A DNA stretch of 64,000 bases from Patescibacteria group bacterium (GCA_028715115.1 JAQUSN010000002.1:210816-274815), one strand, 5' to 3'. Shown: positions 8,611 through 62,003, counted from the first letter of the stretch. Made by a program: numbers and translations. The notes: generated by a model from the sequence alone, not told the origin.

Positions 8611-8639
8611 ATATAATTAGGTTATCGAGATTATTAAAA

Positions 8640-8683
8640 TTGTCAACTAATATTGACATAAGCGCATAAAATAATATAATTAA
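8640..8683 (+). promoter_or_regulatory. Promoter of the TTGACA family driving cassette c.
   Basis: TTGTCA/TTGACA at 8640-8659, followed by a TATAAT-like element around 8675-8680. Confidence 0.4.
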
Positions 8684-8684
8684 T

Positions 8685-8954
8685 ATGCCGTATCATTCAC
8701 CGCAAGCAAGAAAAGGAGCAATGATGTCTGTAACGGCCAAGGCGACCGTTTTTAAGCGCAGAGATACGTCGGTTATGACCGGCTGGCCAACTCGCGTCGT
8801 GAGACTTAAGGAGGACGAAACGCCACACGACCAGTCCCTGCACTTGGCGCATATCTGCGAATGCGACGCAGATGACCAGGCCAGAAAAGACGTTCTCTCC
8901 TTCTGGCTGCCCGAAAAATCCCTAAGAGAACACTACGAACCCGTGGAGGTGTAA
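8685..8954 (+). CDS. GC-rich small soluble protein. The start is more likely the ATG at 8724, which is preceded by AAGGAG.
   Basis: The ORF is bracketed by a consensus promoter and a strong terminator. No recognisable family. Confidence 0.45.
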   Translation: MPYHSPQARKGAMMSVTAKATVFKRRDTSVMTGWPTRVVRLKEDETPHDQSLHLAHICECDADDQARKDVLSFWLPEKSLREHYEPVEV

Positions 8955-8969
8955 ATGCGACCCAGCAAC

Positions 8970-9010
8970 AAGGGCCCTGACCGATAAGTCAGGGCCCCTT
9001 ATTTTTATTC
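8970..9010 (+). terminator. Strong rho-independent terminator (AGGGCCCTGAC..GTCAGGGCCCCT + ATTTTTATT).
   Basis: About 11 bp GC-rich stem followed by a T tract. Confidence 0.65.
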
Positions 9011-9025
9011 TCTTATAAATTAAGT

Positions 9026-13346: not shown

Positions 13347-13409
13347 ATGAAGAAGCTGAAGCCCGATCTTACGTTGATGCACACCCTGTACTGCGCGAGC
13401 GGCGACTGA
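13347..13409 (+). CDS. Possible 20 aa leader peptide (MKKLKPDLTLMHTLYCASGD).
   Basis: Good ribosome-binding site (AAAAAGGAG) 6 nt upstream. Followed by an ORF-free GC-rich region. Confidence 0.25.
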   Translation: MKKLKPDLTLMHTLYCASGD

Positions 13410-13580
13410 TCGCGGACCCGGGCCGGCCCGAACCGGTCGATCCATGGAGGAATAATGAGCGGATTCGTCTAAGAACCAGCCAGGTGCGGGTAAAACCCGC
13501 ACTAGTCCCACAATTAGGGGATGGTTCGAACCGGCGAATACATCCCTGAAGGAGCGTCCTGTGGCGCTCCTTTTCTTTTA
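13410..13580 (+). ncRNA. GC-rich untranslated segment ending in a terminator (AGGAGCG..CGCTCCT + TTTTCTTTT). Candidate small RNA or cis-regulatory leader.
   Basis: No ORF. Internal repeats of 'CGAACCGG'. A terminator hairpin at 13549-13580. Confidence 0.25.
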
Positions 13581-13594
13581 TATTATAGCGTGGC

Positions 13595-13623
13595 TTGACA
13601 AAAAACGAAAAAATAAATAATAT
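13595..13623 (+). promoter_or_regulatory. Promoter TTGACA-N17-TAATAT (cassette e, second unit).
   Basis: The track ORF 13595..14116 begins with the TTG of this -35 box. The true start is more likely 13679. Confidence 0.45.
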
Positions 13624-13678
13624 AAATATGGAGAGTTTATTCTCTTTTTCGCAAAGCACGCAAAACACTGGAGGAACC

Positions 13679-14116
13679 ATGGCAGAAGCAACGATGAGGG
13701 TCAACCGCCCATCGCGGTATCAAGACATCGCCGGGATAGCAATCACTATCCTGATTATGATCTTGGTGGCCTCTCCCGGTCTATACCCGATGATCAAGGG
13801 AGGACTGGTGATGAGCGCCAAGACCTCGGGATGGTTGACTACCACAATTCTTGTCGCGTCCGTGATCGTAGGTGTGATAGCGATGTTTGTCCTGGCCGAA
13901 TGGGATGCCCGTTCCAACAGATTCCCTTTCGCCGCCTGGAAGGTCATCCTCTGTACCTACCTCCTCAACTTCATCGTCTCGCTCACTCTCACCTTTGCCG
14001 CCGCAAGATCACCGGCTCACATCGTCTGCGCAATCGTCGGTGGTCTCTACGTCGGCGTCGTCGCCTTCGTAATGCTGTGTCTGTGGGCTATAGGCAGCAC
14101 CGAGGCGGAGCTCTAG
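13679..14116 (+). CDS. GC-rich polytopic membrane protein (about 145 aa, 4 TM).
   Basis: GGAGG ribosome-binding site 4-5 nt upstream of the ATG at 13679. Hydrophobic segments. Followed by complex terminators. Confidence 0.5.
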   Translation: MAEATMRVNRPSRYQDIAGIAITILIMILVASPGLYPMIKGGLVMSAKTSGWLTTTILVASVIVGVIAMFVLAEWDARSNRFPFAAWKVILCTYLLNFIVSLTLTFAAARSPAHIVCAIVGGLYVGVVAFVMLCLWAIGSTEAEL

Positions 14117-14139
14117 TACGCCCTCGGAGAACAAAATAA

Positions 14140-14240
14140 GTAGGGCTCGCAGAAAGCAAAACCAAATGGGTTTCGCCTACTCGCGAGCCCATTTGATTAT
14201 TATAAAAAGACGAGATTACTCTCGCTTTCTTTTTTTTTGT
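14140..14240 (+). terminator. Nested hairpins plus a copy of the shared 'AAAAAGACGAGATTACTCTCGC' terminator module.
   Basis: GGGCTCGC..GCGAGCCC and AAATGGG..CCCATTT stems, then GACGAGATTACTCTCGC followed by T9. Confidence 0.5.
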
Positions 14241-14246
14241 TTTTTT

Positions 14247-14285
14247 GGGGGGCCCGCCTGTTGACGGACGCAACTAAACTATTAC
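14247..14285 (+). repeat. Degenerate copy of the dispersed TCTGGGGT..ATGCAAG..TTAGAACC element (GGGGGGCCCGCCTGTTGACGGACGCAACTAAACT).
   Basis: Shares the GGGG..CCGCC..TTGACGGA(C/T)GCA core with the copy at 16588. Confidence 0.35.
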
Positions 14286-14313
14286 CAAAATAAACATTAA
14301 TAATTATTTAAAG

Positions 14314-16128: not shown

Positions 16129-16257
16129 ATTTTATTTCGCAGCTATAAAATAAAAATCTTCCTGTCCATCAAGAAGATTATTATTCTTCCAGAAATAGCC
16201 TTAATTATTTTAGCTTTTATTATTCTAACAAAAATAGTAAAAATTGTCAACCGTCAT

Positions 16258-16286
16258 CTTGACAAAAGCGCAAAATGTGATAAAAT
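16258..16286 (+). promoter_or_regulatory. Promoter TTGACAAAAGCGCAAAATGTGATAAAAT (cassette f).
   Basis: Family consensus. Confidence 0.5.
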
Positions 16287-16311
16287 GTAAATATTGAACT
16301 CAGGAGGCTTT

Positions 16312-16497
16312 ATGACAAAGATCAGGACTGCAAACTGGATGCTCTGGATAGGATGTACGGCCCTTGTTGTAGGGGTCATCCTCTGCTTCTACACACACCT
16401 AAGCTGGTGGAAGGTGACGATGACTGGGATTGGGGCTGCGTCTTTACTGACGTCCATCTCCCTCGACCCCAGGGTAGCCTTCCCTTTCTTGGGATAG
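16312..16497 (+). CDS. Small membrane peptide of 61 aa (MTKIRTANWMLWIGCTALVVGVILCFYTHLSWWKVTMTGIGAASLLTSISLDPRVAFPFLG).
   Basis: AGGAGG ribosome-binding site 5-6 nt upstream. Two hydrophobic helices. The track ORF 16294..16497 begins at an upstream TTG. Confidence 0.5.
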   Translation: MTKIRTANWMLWIGCTALVVGVILCFYTHLSWWKVTMTGIGAASLLTSISLDPRVAFPFLG

Positions 16498-16585
16498 GCT
16501 CACCAAGAGTCTCCAGCAAATGGGACTCGACGTGAGCCTTTTGCTTTTACAAAAAAAGACGAGATTACTCTCGCCTCTTTTTATC
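16498..16585 (+). terminator. Hairpin GGCTCAC..GTGAGCC followed by TTTTGCTTTT, then the shared 'ACAAAAAAAGACGAGATTACTCTCGCCTCTTTTTAT' module.
   Basis: Same terminator module as at 10128 and 14205. A variant occurs at 27661. Confidence 0.55.
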
Positions 16586-16587
16586 TT

Positions 16588-16655
16588 GAGGAGGCGGCTC
16601 CACTAGTTGACGGATGCAGGGACGCCCGTTTATCGCCGCAGACAGATTATAACCG
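16588..16655 (+). repeat. Copy of the dispersed element (..GGCGGCTCCACTAGTTGACGGATGCAGGGACGCC..CAGACAGATTATAACC).
   Basis: Core ATGCA(A/G)GGACGCC + ..AGATTA(G/T)AACC shared with 17745. Confidence 0.4.
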
Positions 16656-16666
16656 GGATTATAATA

Positions 16667-27218: not shown

Positions 27219-27605
27219 ATGAAAAAGCTGGCCCTGTTTGCAACGTATAGCGTTTTGACGTGGGGGTGCATTTTCGCCACGACCCACAAGCCCCTCCCTG
27301 GCCTCATCGGCATTCTGTTGTATGCAGTATTGGTTCTCTACTTCGATGTCGAGGACCGCAGATGGTGGGCTCGCAACCACAAACGGACACAGTCACCTGC
27401 ACCCAACTTCGACGTCATCACGGGATATAGTTGGCTGATGGTAGGCGCAGTCTCTTTCTTGGTGAGCCTACCCTTCATGCCAAGCACCGCCACCATCTTC
27501 CATGTCTTCGCTCCTACGTTTGTAACGACCATCATCGCCGGAGCTATCAACACGCTGATGAGACTACACCAAAACAGCCACGACCAGAAAGTCGTCAGAG
27601 GCTAA
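27219..27605 (+). CDS. GC-rich membrane protein of 128 aa.
   Basis: AAGGAGG ribosome-binding site 6 nt upstream. 3-4 TM helices. The 5' UTR contains a CCTTGTC..GACAAGG hairpin. Confidence 0.5.
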   Translation: MKKLALFATYSVLTWGCIFATTHKPLPGLIGILLYAVLVLYFDVEDRRWWARNHKRTQSPAPNFDVITGYSWLMVGAVSFLVSLPFMPSTATIFHVFAPTFVTTIIAGAINTLMRLHQNSHDQKVVRG

Positions 27606-29842: not shown

Positions 29843-29917
29843 TGGGGTGGCTAACGGGATTCGAACCCGTGCTAAAAGCTCCACAGGCTTCTGTGCTACC
29901 ACTACACCATAGCCACC
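29843..29917 (-). tRNA. tRNA-His (anticodon GTG), with G-1 and an encoded CCA.
   Basis: Folded by hand. 8 bp acceptor stem with G-1:C73, D arm GTGT/GCAC, anticodon loop CTGTGGA, T arm ACGGG-TTCGAAT-CCCGT. Lies directly downstream of hisS. Confidence 0.8.
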
Positions 29918-36177: not shown

Positions 36178-37062
36178 CTATTTTATTAATTCATCTTTAT
36201 CTAGATATGGCTGTATTTCGTCCAAAAAACGAAGCGCTTTTTCTTTAACTTCGGGATCTGTTTTTTTAGTTGGTAACCCAAATTCCAAAATTTGCGTAGT
36301 AAGCTGACTAATAAAAATTCTCAAAAGGTTTATTTCGCTATGACCGGTCGAATCTCCGCTCGTATCAAATGTTTTAATATAAGCCTCTAAATCTTCGGGG
36401 CCAATTGCTAAATAAAAAACTGGAATCTTTCTTTCTTCGCCCTTTGCAACCGGCCTATTTTGCCCCGTGCTGTGATCAATGCCTAAGCTATATTTTAATT
36501 TTGCTGCGCCAAATTCATTAAGTTGTTCAGACCTTGTTTTTTTTGTATTAATGTCCTTTCCTATTCTACCATTGGGATTATCGCAAAAATCATCAATAGC
36601 ACAGACCACTTCTCCGGTTTTCTTATTCAATATAACGTTATCAATGTTATTAAAAATATCATCATACTCCGAAGATCTAACGACAATAAACTTATTTCCC
36701 ATATGTTTCTGAAAGACTGCTGTCTTTAGCAACTCTAGTCTTTCGCCCTGCAAAATTCTTTTATTTACATCTGATCCCCATTTTGCTTTTTGCTCGTCTA
36801 CTCTTCTATTATCTACGGCTATTTCGTCGGCAGTATAAACCGAAGAATAACTCATCGGATTAAGACGGCCTGTTTCGGGGTCTATTAACACTCCGTCTTT
36901 TTCTATTTCAACGGCGCTACGTCTAATAAACTCCTCTATTTTTTTAATGGAAACCGTTAGTTCTCCCTCTCTTTTTACCTCGTTTAAAGATCTTTCTTGG
37001 GTTCTACGCATCCTTGGATCCATGTGTCTATCACTAAAAAATCCTTGCATCATGCGGTCCAT
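36178..37062 (-). CDS. Hypothetical protein.
   Basis: 294 aa. No family recognised. Confidence 0.35.
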   Translation of the reverse strand: MDRMMQGFFSDRHMDPRMRRTQERSLNEVKREGELTVSIKKIEEFIRRSAVEIEKDGVLIDPETGRLNPMSYSSVYTADEIAVDNRRVDEQKAKWGSDVNKRILQGERLELLKTAVFQKHMGNKFIVVRSSEYDDIFNNIDNVILNKKTGEVVCAIDDFCDNPNGRIGKDINTKKTRSEQLNEFGAAKLKYSLGIDHSTGQNRPVAKGEERKIPVFYLAIGPEDLEAYIKTFDTSGDSTGHSEINLLRIFISQLTTQILEFGLPTKKTDPEVKEKALRFLDEIQPYLDKDELIK

Positions 37063-37134
37063 ATTTATATAAAATTAATTATTAATAACTATTATTATAA
37101 CATATTTCTATATAAAAACAAGATTAAAGACAAA

Positions 37135-37690
37135 AAACGAAGGGCCTGACTGCATAGTCAGGCCCCTGGACATGGAAAGGGGTCAAACGCCGAGTTCTCG
37201 TTGCTTCCACCAGAAAGACGAATGGAGGCCTAAAGAAGCCTTTGCCCTATCGCTTTCGAGTTGCACTGACTCGTTTACGAGAACCTGTGTGCCCGGTCAA
37301 CGAGTAAACCAAGCTTAAGCGCGCAACCCCAAATATAAGCCGATGGCTAAGGATCGCTCCGTGGACCGGTTGGGAACCAGCCGCGCAAAGAAAAGGAGCG
37401 AACTCAAATCAGATGCTGACACGCAAGGACTTTCGTTTGTCTACTATATGAAGTTAACGGAGGCACTTCACCCGCCCCGTTATAGCTCAGTTGGTTAGAC
37501 CTTGCGGTAAACACCGGAGGAAGGTTTGGGTATGAGTTGAGTCTTACCTCTCACCATCGGCGAAAACCTCCAAATGGCGCCAGAATTGAAACAGTGACAA
37601 GGGCGGACGCGATAGTGGTGAAATATCGATAGCTACGAAGCAGTAAGCCGCCACGTACGCCGCTCATTTCTGGCTTATTTAATATAACAT
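37135..37690 (-). ncRNA. ORF-free GC-rich region of about 550 nt bounded by terminators. Candidate structured RNA(s) or a decayed GC-rich cassette. Identity unresolved.
   Basis: There is no ORF of 60 aa or more on either strand despite elevated GC. A terminator (GGGCCTGACT..AGTCAGGCCC followed by T6 on the minus strand) sits at 37135-37170. The region contains GAAAGTCC, CGGCTTA and GGTGAGAGGTAAGA, which resemble RNase P RNA motifs, but in the wrong order for a canonical RNase P RNA. Confidence 0.2.
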
Positions 37691-37711
37691 TTTATAAATT
37701 AAAGTCCAGTG

Positions 37712-37750
37712 GAAAATAAAAAACTTTCGAGGCCTAACGGCCTCGAAAGA
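37712..37750 (-). terminator. Strong terminator after the DUF1015 gene (CTTTCGAGGCC TAAC GGCCTCGAAAG + T tract).
   Basis: 11 bp perfect stem. Confidence 0.65.
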
Positions 37751-37797
37751 AAATATATATTTTTTTATTACTTTCTATTAAATAGAAGCTTATTTGT

Positions 37798-39132
37798 TTA
37801 CGGCCTGATTTTGCGGCATTCTAAATAATAACGCTTTTCATCTGCTTCGCCGAGAGAAAAAGTTTTGCGCGGCAAAGCGCCGTCTAAAATAACCGTCTTA
37901 AATAAATCATGTTTATCCATGACCGGCAAATAAAAACCTAAATTTCCGCTCTTTCGCCCAAGCTTGGCCACGGCTTTGTCGCCATGCACATAATCAATTT
38001 TTGTTTCTTTATGTTTGACTAAATATTCATCCAAGAATGATTGCAGCGTCCCGACTTCAAGATTTAATTTAGGATTTTTTATTTGCAAAACGCCAAATTT
38101 TTTACCACTAACGAATTTTATCAGGTGTTCGCTCCCCTTCTTCGCTTTCCTTGTCGCCTGTTCAGCCGCTTTATCGGTTTTAAATAATTTATAATCCAGG
38201 GTTGATTTTTGCTTTTTGTAATAGTAGTCCATTTCTTTTAATAATCGTTCAAGGTTTACATTAAAGAGAACACGATGAATTGGTTCGAAAATTAAACCAG
38301 TATCGTGAATATTCAATACTTCAACTAAAGCATATCTGGCAGGATGGTTAACCAATTTAGATTTTGGCAAACGTTTCTTAAATAATTCCCAAGTAGCCTT
38401 GGCCGTGGCCAGAGAATGATTACCATCTCCGGCGGCAAAAAGCACTATTGGTTCGTTTTTTACGCCATACTTTCGGCTAAAAGACCTTTTATCGGCTAAT
38501 TTTTCCAGATTCTTAATAGTTTTTTCTATTATTTTTTCGTCATTTATCTTATAGCCCCTAAGGTGTCCTCCGCTAAACATTAAATTAAAATCATAAATCT
38601 TATTCCTATGCTTCAGGTTTTTAAATAGTGGTTCGACGACGGTTTTCTTGGGGTCATCGATTAAAATCAGGATATGCGGCAATTCTATCAGCGCTTCTTT
38701 ACGAATGGCAATTCGCGGCGGCAAACGATTTAAAACCGTGCCTTCGGTGCAACGAATTAAACTCTTGGCGCCCTTATGATAATTATAATTCTCTAAATCA
38801 AGAGCCATAATCAAACCTTTGCGCGATTTTACCTCGTTAGTCTTGCGGTCAACTAAGACAAAACATTTTTCCGGTGTTAATACGGTCTGTAAATATTTTT
38901 TCATCTGCGCTTTTATGCGCTTAATTCTTTCTTGCTTACCTGGCGCCTCCAAGTATACTTCCGGAAAAATGATATTTAAAGTCGAAGGATTTGACCCGAC
39001 TATTTTTTTAACCTTTTGCCAATATTCCGGTTCGGAAGTATATTGATCGCAGGCCACGACCGACCACTTGCGCAAATCAACATTTTTAGGCAACAGGATT
39101 TCTGGAACAAGAACGCCGATTTTGTTTTTCAT
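37798..39132 (-). CDS. DUF1015-like family protein.
   Basis: 444 aa with CDQY and GDGNHS motifs that I associate with DUF1015. Moderate call. Confidence 0.45.
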   Translation of the reverse strand: MKNKIGVLVPEILLPKNVDLRKWSVVACDQYTSEPEYWQKVKKIVGSNPSTLNIIFPEVYLEAPGKQERIKRIKAQMKKYLQTVLTPEKCFVLVDRKTNEVKSRKGLIMALDLENYNYHKGAKSLIRCTEGTVLNRLPPRIAIRKEALIELPHILILIDDPKKTVVEPLFKNLKHRNKIYDFNLMFSGGHLRGYKINDEKIIEKTIKNLEKLADKRSFSRKYGVKNEPIVLFAAGDGNHSLATAKATWELFKKRLPKSKLVNHPARYALVEVLNIHDTGLIFEPIHRVLFNVNLERLLKEMDYYYKKQKSTLDYKLFKTDKAAEQATRKAKKGSEHLIKFVSGKKFGVLQIKNPKLNLEVGTLQSFLDEYLVKHKETKIDYVHGDKAVAKLGRKSGNLGFYLPVMDKHDLFKTVILDGALPRKTFSLGEADEKRYYLECRKIRP

Positions 39133-41282: not shown

Positions 41283-42026
41283 CTACTGCCTTGTCTTGGC
41301 CATGGCCTCCATCAGTCGAGGCCACTCTGCCTTCGGTTTCAAGATCACGTTGCCGGCTGCGATGTCAGCCGCAACTGCCGGATCGTCCTGCTTCCACTGC
41401 TCGGTTGGCTTATTGACCAGAGCCACAACCGGCCTCTTTTCCCATTCCATTTTACCGGAACGGTTCAAGAAACAACCAACCCCAACCAGTCTTGCGCCGG
41501 TAGTCCCAATCGCAGCAGCGGCCTGACCGGTAGTAGAGTAGTTATTGCAGACATCTTCCACCAACAGGCATGGCGCATCGCGACCGATGTCATGACGCGA
41601 CAGAACCAGTTCGGACTGCTCGCGGCTCGTACCGGTAGCCAAGGCCGTCACCCTCTTCTCCAGGAAGGCAAACCGCTTACGCAGCGCCATCGCTACCAAA
41701 GCGGCCAATACGATACCTCCCATAGGTGCACCAATGACGACGTCGAATTGCGAATCGAAATCGCCATGACGCAACTCAAAGCCCAGTCTCTCGGCTTCTT
41801 GTCGAAGAACGTTGGGGTCTTGCTCGAGTGTAGCAACGTTGAAGTAAACGTCGCCGACATACTGCAGTTTCTGCCCATCAGATCCCTCGTAACGGCCAGC
41901 ATAACCGACTAGAGGTCCGAGACGCTTGCCGGTTATGGGGTCTCTTGGACAGGCATAGTAGCCACCCGCGGCATGAAGTATATCTAGCGGATCACTTGCC
42001 GGACCTATTTCTTCCATTTCATTCAC
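41283..42026 (-). CDS. Type I phosphoribosyltransferase, orotate phosphoribosyltransferase-like. GC-rich.
   Basis: PRPP-binding motif LLVEDVCNNYSTTGQAA. Directly downstream of pyrF. Confidence 0.5.
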   Translation of the reverse strand: MNEMEEIGPASDPLDILHAAGGYYACPRDPITGKRLGPLVGYAGRYEGSDGQKLQYVGDVYFNVATLEQDPNVLRQEAERLGFELRHGDFDSQFDVVIGAPMGGIVLAALVAMALRKRFAFLEKRVTALATGTSREQSELVLSRHDIGRDAPCLLVEDVCNNYSTTGQAAAAIGTTGARLVGVGCFLNRSGKMEWEKRPVVALVNKPTEQWKQDDPAVAADIAAGNVILKPKAEWPRLMEAMAKTRQ

Positions 42027-42050
42027 CTCCTTTCATTGGTGAGTTTGGAG

Positions 42051-42953
42051 TTATACGTGCTCGTCGCCAGCGGGAAAAGGAATGTCGCCGCCAGCCGCCC
42101 TGATCTGATCGCGTAGCTTCTCGGCTTCTGCGGCCGGATCGCTGGCGAAGATGATGCCGGACGATGAGTTGATGGTGATGGAACCGGGTCCTGCGAAAGC
42201 AGCCTTGACCGTCTCTTCGACGAATCCCTTCTGCGTTCCGATGCCCGGAATGAGCATCCACATCTCGTTGCCCACGATCTCCCTACATCTTGAAAGGTGC
42301 CAGAAGTAGACCTTGGACTCGTCGCTCGGATCCTTGTGAGCCGCGCCCATGACTACGCCGGCATTCTCGATGACCCCCAGCTCTTTCGACCACTGAAGCA
42401 GATTCTGGACCATGAACTCCCAGAAACGCAGACCGCTCTCCATCTTCGCATCCTAGATAACCCAGGCTTCTTTGTTGCTGGTCCGACCGAGGCCGACTAG
42501 TGCTCGACCCGGACGCTTTTCGTCGATCAGCGACATGAGCGTATCCTTGCCCATGTATCCGACGAAGTTCATCCCATCGGCGTTTTCGAGGCCGAGGTGA
42601 GTATTGCCGTAGAGCCTCTGAGTACGATCGATGTCGCCCCTCTTGCAGTCAACCATCACCGGAATGTCCGGATGATTCGCGTGGATGTAGCCGATGAGCA
42701 TCTTGAGAACCCCAAGCCCATCGGGAATTGCCTCCCAGTGAGCGTGCTGGAACTTGAACATCGACGCAGCGTGTTCGGTATCATCGATGACGCCCATCAT
42801 CCACAGATAGAGAGCGACATGCACAGCACATCCCATCTCCAGGAACCTGGACGGCATCCTCTCGATCAGCGGATCGAGGCCGACACAGACGAGGGAGTTT
42901 GCCCTCTTCTGCCTTTCTGTTAGCTTCTTGCGGAACCGTCTGTCTTCTGCCAT
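42051..42953 (-). pseudogene. pyrF: Orotidine-5'-phosphate decarboxylase (type 2 PyrF) interrupted by an in-frame TAG at 42444-42446.
   Basis: The upstream part has VCVGLDP and MVDCKRGDI (D-x-K-x-x-D). The downstream part has LIPGIGTQ. The two track ORFs (42453..42953 and 42051..42443) are in the same frame, separated by a single amber codon. Confidence 0.65.
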
Positions 42954-61037: not shown

Positions 61038-61174
61038 ATTTATATAATAAAATAATTTTCGTTAATTCAAGACTAACCTCAACTAACCAAAAAGTCCCGC
61101 TTGTCGCGGTCTAGGGGGCTATAGATCTGTAAAGATATTATAGCATAAATATAAATTTTAGCCAGAGATAAAAA

Positions 61175-61490
61175 GAGGAGGGCCAGCTTTCGCCGGCCCT
61201 CATTGCACTCCAGGTTGTAGTCTGTCTTTCGACAAGACCGAGCTCGCCATCCGAGACAACGATAGCCTTCTTAAGGCTTAGGTTATAACCCCGGCTGTTC
61301 GCCGAGCACCTGTTTTGTTGTCTCCGATAACTCGCCCGTATTCTAGTAGTCCTTCTCCACTGCGCCTCCATGGGGAGCCGCGCGACTCGACGCCGCACGA
61401 CGGTTTAGAGCTTCCGGATCTTGCTCGACCGTACAGCGCACCAGTGAAACACCGGCGCGGCGGACAGACGATATCCGTTAGGACGTATCC
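61175..61490 (-). ncRNA. GC-rich transcription unit of about 315 nt with a strong promoter and terminator but no credible ORF. Candidate small RNA.
   Basis: On the minus strand: promoter TTGACA-N17-TATTAA (61525..61497) and terminator GGGCCGGCGAAAGCTGGCCC followed by TCCTCTTTTTATC (61179-61201). The only long ORF (61138..61398) is Arg-rich and reads through the terminator. Confidence 0.3.
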
Positions 61491-61622: not shown

Positions 61623-62003
61623 ATGGCTCTTCCCATAACGAAAAATCCACCTACGACGATTAGTAGAGGTGACGTCATGAGGCGCCTAAGAGAATCCGGA
61701 AATCCTGTCTGGAGAAGCTTTGTCCTGCCAAGGCGCGAACATCTACGGCCCGATGAGAAACTCCGACTCTTCAGCTTCGCACCGGTTCAAGAGACTCTTC
61801 TGCCGATCCCCTTGTCAGTTGACGAACTGAGAATAGAAGCGATCGAAGGCGACCGGATCATCTTTGCCGATCCGTGGCAAGACGGCATTACGCCAAGACC
61901 CAGTCCGCTGTCCATCGTCGAAATACTCACAGACACAGTCAGGCTGACGCCGGAAGGAGAGTTCACGCTCTATCTGGTACGCCTTGAACGCCCCCGTCAC
62001 TAA
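61623..62003 (+). CDS. GC-rich hypothetical soluble protein (126 aa).
   Basis: AAGGAGG ribosome-binding site 3-4 nt upstream. Promoter and terminator bracket the ORF. No family. Confidence 0.45.
   Translation: MALPITKNPPTTISRGDVMRRLRESGNPVWRSFVLPRREHLRPDEKLRLFSFAPVQETLLPIPLSVDELRIEAIEGDRIIFADPWQDGITPRPSPLSIVEILTDTVRLTPEGEFTLYLVRLERPRH

Follow-up and report, generated by a model that had tools for sequence, protein, structure and literature searches.

A GC-rich, ORF-free unit between two terminators in a Patescibacteria genome: a candidate non-coding RNA gene with an antisense tRNA-Thr-like segment

Genomic context and boundaries of the GC-rich unit

The genomes of Patescibacteria (candidate phyla radiation) are very small and tightly packed, and their non-coding RNAs are poorly known. 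The locus described here lies in a metagenome-assembled genome from this group, within a 64 kb stretch of DNA (termed the window, denoting the whole stretch analysed) that has an overall GC content of 0.38 and carries nearly all of its genes on the minus strand. A gap of 735 nt separates two of these minus-strand genes: the upstream neighbour, a DUF1015 gene (37798–39132; Pfam PF06245, E 1.5e-59), and the downstream neighbour, an uncharacterised gene encoding a 294-aa protein (36178–37062), which is followed by HlyD-like and ABC-ATPase (ABC-transporter) genes. The same locus is found on contig JAQTNO010000015.1 of GCA_028713815.1 and on two Logan contigs; these three contigs are 100% identical to it and therefore supply no covariation information.

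The gap contains a block with sharp edges (37140–37676) and a GC content of approximately 0.51. Its body (37172–37676) has a GC content of 0.515, compared with 0.10 and 0.24 in the flanking spacers, and GC stays between 0.48 and 0.54 throughout 37100–37600 against 0.38 window-wide; spacers in this streamlined genome range from 0.10 to 0.26. The original prediction, which described a GC-rich gap with no ORF of 60 aa or more bounded by two minus-strand terminators, was borne out in all of these respects, and both terminators were confirmed. On the minus strand the unit consists of A 0.21, C 0.26, G 0.25 and U 0.275, and is thus A-poor and U-rich, like the tRNAs of this genome and unlike its purine-rich coding strands. 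High GC does not in itself point specifically to RNA, because GC-rich protein genes also occur in this genome. The pyrimidine genes at 41283–42953 (GC 0.56) and several small GC-rich cassettes elsewhere in the window look horizontally acquired, and other GC-rich units of the window, including neighbouring ones, do encode small proteins. A second, similar ORF-free unit is present in the same window. No internal repeats or att-like direct repeats were found at the GC-rich block.

The terminator of the unit itself (37131–37167, minus strand; stem 37167–37140) is made up of a 12-bp stem with seven G–C pairs, AGGGGCCUGACU / AGUCAGGCCCUU, and a 4-nt loop, followed by CGUUUUUUGU, which contains a T6 run. 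The second terminator (37716–37749, minus strand; stem 37749–37724), with an 11-bp stem including seven G–C pairs and a following T6 run, begins 49 nt past the stop codon of the DUF1015 gene, to which it belongs; it defines the upstream boundary of the unit and lies outside it. In our own scan of both strands of the window, which yielded 14 strong terminator-like sites, the terminator at 37167–37140 has the longest stem. It follows no ORF, so that the unit possesses, as expected of a non-coding RNA gene, a terminator of its own that does not serve an ORF. It is also the strongest terminator of the window and, given that the DUF1015 terminator lies 555 nt earlier, would be meaningful only for a transcript beginning between the two. 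The terminator resembles that of a cassette at 8972–8997, yet the two are not copies of a repeated element.

A promoter-like site on the minus strand (37681–37708) is composed of TGGACT (37708–37703), a 16-nt spacer and an extended -10 element, TG-n-TATATT (37689–37681), with a predicted start near 37675; the GC-rich block starts 5–10 nt downstream of it. A scan of 1.2 kb yielded three sites of that quality where chance alone predicts 2.1, and such sites are equally common in shuffled sequence, so the match carries little weight. An extended -10-like element, TGTTATAAT (37094–37101, minus strand), lacking a matching -35 element, lies between the terminator of the unit and the start of the 294-aa gene, and could be the promoter of that gene itself. 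Judging from the two terminators and the position of TGTTATAAT, the simplest layout would be one in which the DUF1015 gene, the GC-rich unit and the operon downstream are each transcribed separately from the minus strand.

Coding capacity

The longest ORFs inside the gap encode 48–51 aa. Each of the six frames contains 7–11 stops of mixed kinds per 200 codons, which by our own estimate is approximately random for this GC content, and reassignment of any single stop codon, as in an alternative genetic code, opens no frame. Thirteen stop-free segments of at least 30 aa, taken from all six frames, gave no match at E ≤ 10 among 5.8 billion proteins, in a search that may miss an orphan gene or a pseudogene of great age; it follows that no related spurious ORF has ever been predicted elsewhere by gene callers. 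Codon-usage log-odds of the segments range from -0.29 to +0.11, compared with 0.28 ± 0.12 for real genes and 0.26 ± 0.13 for GC-rich genes scored by a model of their own, and GC is flat over the three codon positions, giving no coding signal. Neither the open frame nor the translated homology by which a protein-coding gene or pseudogene is recognized was found. The idea of a decayed GC-rich cassette gene, raised at the outset together with a blastx-type check for pseudogene remnants, accordingly found no support in protein homology, in coding signal or in any reassigned frame, results that weigh less against an orphan gene.

Near its 5′ end the unit contains two very small, overlapping minus-strand ORFs. 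The first, of 38 codons (MSGVRGGLLLRSYRYFTTIASALVTVSILAPFGGFRRW, 37551–37667), is hydrophobic and has neither a Shine–Dalgarno sequence nor a homolog. The second, of 20 codons (MVRGKTQLIPKPSSGVYRKV, 37495–37557), has GGAGG 10 nt upstream, overlaps the stop of the 38-codon ORF and likewise has no homolog. We doubt that either is a real gene.

Comparison with known RNA families

At gathering thresholds, Rfam 15 (4,227 RNA families) identified only three tRNAs in the whole window. At E ≤ 10, a search of both strands of 37050–37800 listed six low-scoring entries, each a chance match to an unrelated small-RNA family that is attributable to a terminator or to the AT-rich flanks. The Infernal/Rfam search proposed in the original prediction, which named RNase P RNA, tmRNA, introns and SRP RNA, thus returned no relevant match at this threshold; the same holds for the covariance models of group I and II introns, SRP RNA, 6S RNA, OLE, ROOL, GOLLD, HEARO, raiA, T-box elements and riboswitches. 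No tmRNA was found by ARAGORN, including its relaxed mode, or by Rfam.

The minus strand does contain strings resembling conserved parts of RNase P RNA (GAGGTAAGA...CCCAAACC...GAAAGTCC, 37550–37427). They stand in the order GGUAAGA, CCCAAACC, GAAAGUCC, CGGCUUA, with approximately 85 nt between the last two, and the predicted partner of CGGCUUA is GCCGAUGG, not GAAAGUCC. The presence of the strings and their non-canonical order were as first reported; their number is no greater than expected by chance, as judged by shared k-mers and a genome scan. As a positive control, the RNase P RNA of another Patescibacteria locus (L064) scored 211 bits (E 6.7e-68) with the same tool, so RNase P covariance models do work in this group. 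The unit and Patescibacteria RNase P RNA have 11 7-mers in common, against 10.7 ± 4.0 in shuffled sequences, and three 8-mers, against 2.7 by chance. With the Rfam RNase P consensus 17 7-mers are shared against 10.5, a value reached by 15 of 200 shuffles. Comparison with an unverified sequence of E. coli M1 RNA gave 25 shared 7-mers where 12 were expected; this excess rests partly on an 11-mer in what we take to be a variable helix of the E. coli RNA, and it was not reproduced against Patescibacteria RNase P RNA. A scan of 185,579 species genomes for the three-motif pattern with compatible spacing produced a single match, inside a 361-aa ORF of an actinobacterial contig, which we judged to be due to chance.

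The attributes of RNase P RNA (RF00010/RF00011), namely a covariance match, the canonical order with a helix P4 that is formed by GAAAGUCC and CGGCUUA and encloses the specificity domain, and sequence similarity, are all absent. An RNase P RNA was rejected in view of the lack of any Rfam match at E ≤ 10 where the control reaches 211 bits, the chance level of shared k-mers and the wrong order of the strings. Neither covariance models nor k-mers nor the genome pattern scan support the suggestion of a structured RNA of this type in divergent or permuted form. Recognizing the strings as chance matches corrects a tempting misreading of this locus.

A tRNA-Thr-like stretch on the plus strand

On the plus strand, 88 nt of the unit (37474–37561) resemble tRNA-Thr(GGU) and are colinear with the tRNA-Thr(GGU) sequences of two fetched Patescibacteria loci. 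The stretch opens with an acceptor-5′-like strand, GCCCCGTTA, followed by an exact D-arm, TATAGCTCAGTTGGTTAGA, which occupies a 19-nt region (37481–37499) almost identical to that of real tRNAs. The anticodon region consists of CTTGC, corresponding to the 5′ strand of the anticodon stem, GGT (37506–37508) and then AA (to 37510). It is followed by a variable-loop AGGT, the T-loop-like GTTGAGTC and an acceptor-3′ strand, CCATCGGC (37554–37561), so that all of the elements stand in tRNA order. The local alignment score of 21 compares with 14.1 ± 1.4 for dinucleotide shuffles, none of which (0 of 300) reached it. Apart from its three true tRNA genes, the window contains no higher score, and the runner-up reaches 18. 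The D-arm-like string first noticed on the plus strand is therefore real and above chance. In a global alignment against 26 tRNAs, the two tRNA-Thr(GGU) sequences rank first and second and tRNA-Thr(UGU) third; elsewhere in the unit, no significant resemblance to any tRNA was seen.

The stretch no longer has the means to form a tRNA. Both the T-stem and the 3′ strand of the anticodon stem have disappeared, and the two acceptor strands have lost their ability to pair with each other. ARAGORN found no tRNA here at default or relaxed settings, with or without introns, and made only implausible calls at a 70% threshold; the Rfam tRNA model (RF00005) applied to 37455–37575 (121 nt) alone gave nothing at E ≤ 10. 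The cloverleaf that defines this family is absent, and the sequence points to descent from a tRNA gene. The earlier suggestion of a fragmentary or intron-containing RNA gene, for which tRNA detection with introns had been proposed, thus holds insofar as an 88-nt stretch colinear with tRNA-Thr(GGU) exists and fails as regards an intron or a tRNA fold. An intron-containing tRNA was rejected, since neither signs of an intron nor an intact 3′ half were found. Going by its sequence, 37474–37561 is a tRNA-derived relic, neither a tRNA nor an intron-containing tRNA.

Predicted folding of the minus-strand transcript

The predicted non-coding transcript, running on the minus strand from the promoter-like site through the GC-rich body and the terminator (37132–37676), is approximately 540 nt long, contains no ORF of 60 aa or more and has no Rfam match. 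Its predicted fold comprises three domains. Domain 1 (37579–37674), a long 5′ hairpin, is closed by GCCAGAA/UUCUGGC (37674–37668 with 37585–37579) with pair probabilities above 0.8. Domain 2 (37339–37561) is closed by a perfect 9-bp long-range helix between GCCGAUGGU (37561–37553) and GCCAUCGGC (37347–37339), and holds the antisense copy of the tRNA-like stretch; in this predicted fold the acceptor-3′ strand of that stretch constitutes one arm of the closing helix, and the segment complementary to the D-arm is largely unpaired. Domain 3 (37179–37330) is closed by GGGGUU/GACCCC and contains an inner 9-bp helix, GGUUCUCGU/ACGAGAACU (37285–37277 with 37201–37193).

When the terminator is included, the minus strand has a minimum free energy (MFE) z-score of -3.6, compared with -2.6 for the plus strand. 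Without it, the scores of the body are -1.8 to -2.4 (minus) and -1.2 to -1.5 (plus), against a background mean of -1.1 ± 1.6 over 127 ordinary 500-nt windows of this genome. Domain 1, which was delimited after the fold had been seen, has a z-score of -2.3; domain 2 scores -3.1 (minus) and -2.8 (plus), and domain 3 scores -2.8 (minus) and -1.8 (plus). The whole body folds better on the minus than on the plus strand by every measure used, whereas the domains are mixed, domain 1 having the lower MFE z-score on the plus strand. Ensemble diversity and the fraction of well-defined pairs in the whole body also favour the minus strand (z approximately 1.6–1.7), although not decisively. Modelled from a single sequence, the thermodynamic signal for structure is modest.

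Search for relatives of the unit

The protein family of the 294-aa neighbour has just eight members in the protein database. Its one close relative (P0122, 75% identical) is encoded on a 2,160-bp contig (JGI sample 3300075153) that also has a 709-nt gene-free gap upstream of the gene (gene-free stretch 340–1047) and the same 10-nt spacing to the next gene; the two loci were compared by gap size and layout. More distant homologs (at most 37% identity) were located in 80 metagenome loci. Upstream gaps, measured for 56 of these, are shorter than 270 nt in all but two, neither of which is GC-rich, and sequence related to the unit was found in none of the 80. Because the loci of the distant homologs lack both the gap and related sequence, the unit is not a general partner or leader of the 294-aa family. 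Relatives of the DUF1015 gene at 69% identity have other neighbours and no such gap.

Searches by blastn detected no DNA homolog of the unit in phages or plasmids. Viral contigs scanned with a 19-mer gave no match, and an 18-mer scan gave a match in the 3′ UTR of two levivirus contigs, with a shared stretch of 20 nt; this identity was rejected as chance, by our own rough estimate of the collection size for the 18-mer queried. The predicted structure of the 294-aa protein weakly resembles restriction-endonuclease folds and offers no link to the RNA of the unit. Nothing specific to this unit was found in the literature.

Interpretation of the unit

The best reading, which we hold tentatively and rate at a little below an even chance, is an independent, lineage-restricted non-coding RNA gene of approximately 540 nt on the minus strand, with an antisense segment derived from tRNA-Thr. 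It is preferred because the edges of the block match the promoter-like site and the terminator, coding capacity is absent, the base composition is RNA-like and the relative at 75% identity has a similar gap, retained in a type of genome that tolerates little spare DNA. Transcription would start near 37675 at a weak promoter with an extended -10 element and would end at the very strong intrinsic terminator at 37167–37131. The GC-rich, A-poor transcript would then fold into three domains, a long hairpin at the 5′ end followed by two domains of several helices, each enclosed by long-range pairing. The middle domain would carry, in antisense, the 88 nt derived from a tRNA-Thr(GGU) gene. The boundaries, the terminators, the lack of coding capacity and of a known family and the tRNA similarity are observed, and we infer from them that the promoter is active, that the fold forms and that the unit functions as a trans-acting structured RNA and is not translated. 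The contribution of the acceptor-3′ strand to the closing helix of domain 2 suggests that such an RNA was partly built from an old tRNA gene. A function through pairing of exposed segments, either the anti-tRNA stretch or a CCUCC run at 37520–37516, is speculation.

Several observations weigh against a non-coding RNA gene. The z-score of the body (-1.8 to -2.4) has to be set against genome windows at -1.1 ± 1.6, and in AT-rich DNA chance would produce promoter matches just as good. The only part with a recognizable ancestry, the tRNA-Thr-like stretch, reads sensibly on the opposite, plus strand. The other copies of the locus are 100% identical, and GC-rich genes in this genome may also encode proteins.

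The main rival, unlikely in our estimate and still a serious possibility, is that the unit is a non-functional relic: decaying older or foreign GC-rich DNA between terminators, including a dead plus-strand tRNA-Thr(GGU) gene, with the terminator of the unit itself as the leftover of a lost gene. A tRNA-Thr(GGU)-colinear stretch with a broken cloverleaf is the signature of a pseudogene, the folding stability falls within the genomic background, and other GC-rich blocks, such as the pyrimidine genes and the small cassettes, look horizontally acquired. The absence of homologs among proteins, phages, plasmids and the 80 metagenome loci, and, one chance match aside, of the motif pattern among the 185,579 genomes, would also be accounted for. 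Against this, a useless block of 0.5 kb would be expected to have been deleted or to drift towards the AT-rich composition of the spacers (0.10–0.26), yet its GC stands at 0.51; its sharp edges coincide with the promoter-like site and the terminator; and the relative at 75% identity keeps a gap of similar size. Moreover, just 88 of the approximately 540 nt can be traced to a tRNA, the remainder matching no tRNA, RNase P RNA or protein.

Translation of the unit is improbable. The RNA would in that case be an mRNA with a long structured 3′ region, coding for a hydrophobic 38-aa peptide similar in kind to type I toxins, for an overlapping basic peptide of 20 aa, or for both. The position of the 38-codon ORF, which starts approximately 8 nt past the predicted transcript start and encodes a membrane-helix-like segment, is compatible with such an mRNA, as are the GGAGG 10 nt upstream of the 20-codon ORF, the AUGGUGA overlap of that ORF with the first stop and the small proteins encoded by other GC-rich units of the window. 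The 38-codon ORF is, however, without a Shine–Dalgarno sequence, hydrophobic ORFs arise by chance in U-rich sequence, neither peptide has a homolog among the 5.8 billion proteins, codon-usage scores are unlike those of coding sequence, and approximately 400 nt of GC-rich downstream sequence would be left unexplained. Slightly less probable again is a long cis-acting leader, attenuator- or riboswitch-like, controlling read-through into the operon of the 294-aa, HlyD-like and ABC-transporter genes. The terminator and the 294-aa gene do share a strand, with approximately 70 nt between the end of the one and the start of the other; gap and gene stay together in the relative at 75% identity; and the 3′ arm of the terminator could pair with a 13-nt segment (37438–37426) to which it is 85% complementary. 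Antiterminators do not work by a competing pairing with that arm, however; no riboswitch, T-box or leader family matches, the extended -10 element TGTTATAAT stands between the terminator and the 294-aa gene, and the loci of the distant homologs speak against a leader both in gap length (<270 nt in all but 2 of 56) and in related sequence (0 of 80). Finally, a divergent, permuted or fragmented form of a known RNA (RNase P RNA, tmRNA, a group I or II intron, OLE, ROOL or GOLLD) is close to refuted and highly improbable. Its case consists of the short strings that resemble conserved RNase P RNA regions and the 25 7-mers shared with the unverified E. coli M1 sequence where 12 were expected; it is opposed by the lack of any Rfam family at E ≤ 10 on either strand, by the 211-bit Patescibacteria RNase P RNA sharing k-mers with the unit at chance level (11 versus 10.7), by the non-canonical motif order, by the absence of a tmRNA even at relaxed ARAGORN settings and by a three-motif pattern that recurs once, by chance, in 185,579 genomes.

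A non-coding RNA gene, if real, would place a 0.5 kb non-coding unit outside the 4,227 RNA families and thereby constitute a new lineage-specific RNA, the antisense tRNA-Thr segment of which would exemplify a non-coding RNA built from a tRNA gene. A more ambitious version, which we regard as a long shot, is an undescribed class of large (approximately 540 nt) structured Patescibacteria RNA organized around antisense tRNA-Thr(GGU), which would capture or sense tRNA-Thr or its precursor via the exposed complement of the D-arm and anticodon; if true, it would be a trans-acting RNA targeting a tRNA by extended base pairing. Should the unit instead be a relic, it would show that such genomes can retain defunct RNA genes and foreign fragments rich in GC. 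The unit remains a candidate; if real, it would count as a new bacterial non-coding RNA confined to one lineage and would not amount to a new type of system.

Comparison with known systems

The plus-strand stretch shares with tRNA-Thr(GGU) genes and pseudogenes the ordered series of acceptor, D-arm, GGT anticodon, variable region and T-loop, and differs in that the anticodon-stem 3′ strand and the T-stem are gone and the acceptor is unpaired. In contrast to tRNA genes, it lies antisense to the only plausible transcription unit. Strings like those of class A RNase P RNA (RF00010) are present in the unit, namely GAAAGUCC, CGGCUUA, GGUGAGAGGUAAGA and a CCCAAACC-like string, but they are misordered, the would-be P4 strands are just 85 nt apart and there is no covariance match. 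With type I toxin mRNAs and small-protein cassettes the unit has in common its short, self-contained layout, with a promoter-like site, a terminator and a small hydrophobic 5′ ORF; unlike them, it has no ribosome-binding site before the 38-codon ORF, no antisense partner and no conservation, and most of the transcript lies beyond the ORF.

Orphan classes of large bacterial non-coding RNA include OLE, ROOL, GOLLD and raiA. Long GC-rich intergenic regions in AT-rich genomes serve as a search approach for such RNAs (PMC8632094, PMC11109978). Although the unit matches none of them in Rfam 15 and its folding z-score, obtained from a single sequence, is modest, it resembles them in a length of several hundred nucleotides, a GC content far above that of the genome, an ORF-free sequence and an intrinsic terminator of its own.

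Candidate non-coding units and other segments

The minus strand of the target, the GC-rich, ORF-free candidate non-coding unit at 37132–37676, carries a 20-nt sequence, CCGATGGTGAGAGGTAAGAC, that is identical to positions 75–94 and 33–52, respectively, of L006 and L007, two levivirus contigs from IMG/VR. In these two related RNA-phage genomes, the sequence is located in the 3′ UTR, directly past the stop codon of the replicase. No similarity between the target and either contig was detected past the 20-nt match, which we judged to be a chance identity.

The window holds another GC-rich stretch devoid of ORFs, approximately 340 nt long, on the minus strand at 61150–61490. This unit is preceded by a near-consensus promoter (approximately 61517–61490, minus strand; TTGACA, 16 nt, TATATT) and contains a strong terminator at 61201–61178 of the same strand; its MFE z-score, with the terminator counted in, is −4.0. 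No relevant Rfam family was matched at E ≤ 10, and sequence similarity to the target is absent except for a single common 9-mer.

A strong minus-strand terminator (29496–29475) is also positioned approximately 350 nt downstream of tRNA-His (29843–29916), the intervening sequence being AT-rich and ORF-free. The segment at 13369–14313 is GC-rich, reaching 0.61, and encloses ORFs of 100–170 amino acids that overlap one another on both strands, together with a plus-strand terminator at 13548–13573.

GC-rich and possibly horizontally acquired genes

Four small GC-rich cassettes (8611–9025, 16129–16666, 27219–27605 and 61623–62003) lie on the plus strand; almost all of the other genes are on the minus strand. 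Wherever their flanks were inspected, the promoter matched the consensus (TTGACA, 17 nt, TAnAAT) and a Shine–Dalgarno sequence was present. At least two of the four, 8611–9025 and 61623–62003, are closed by an intrinsic terminator. Their ORFs are small, of about 60–130 amino acids, the two largest (126 and 128 amino acids) having no NCBIfam match. These cassettes have the appearance of accessory genes, either acquired or specific to the lineage.

Three neighbouring genes at 41283–42953 have a GC content of 0.56–0.58, compared with 0.38 for the genome, and were probably acquired horizontally. The public annotation of the same contig assigns phosphoribosyltransferase and OMP-decarboxylase domains to two of these genes, and the remaining gene has no domain match.

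The DUF1015 protein, encoded on the minus strand at 37798–39132, immediately upstream of the target, has its nearest relatives at 69% identity. The next matches, at 55–60% identity, are scattered over Clostridia, archaea and other phyla, a distribution that suggests horizontal transfer of the gene.
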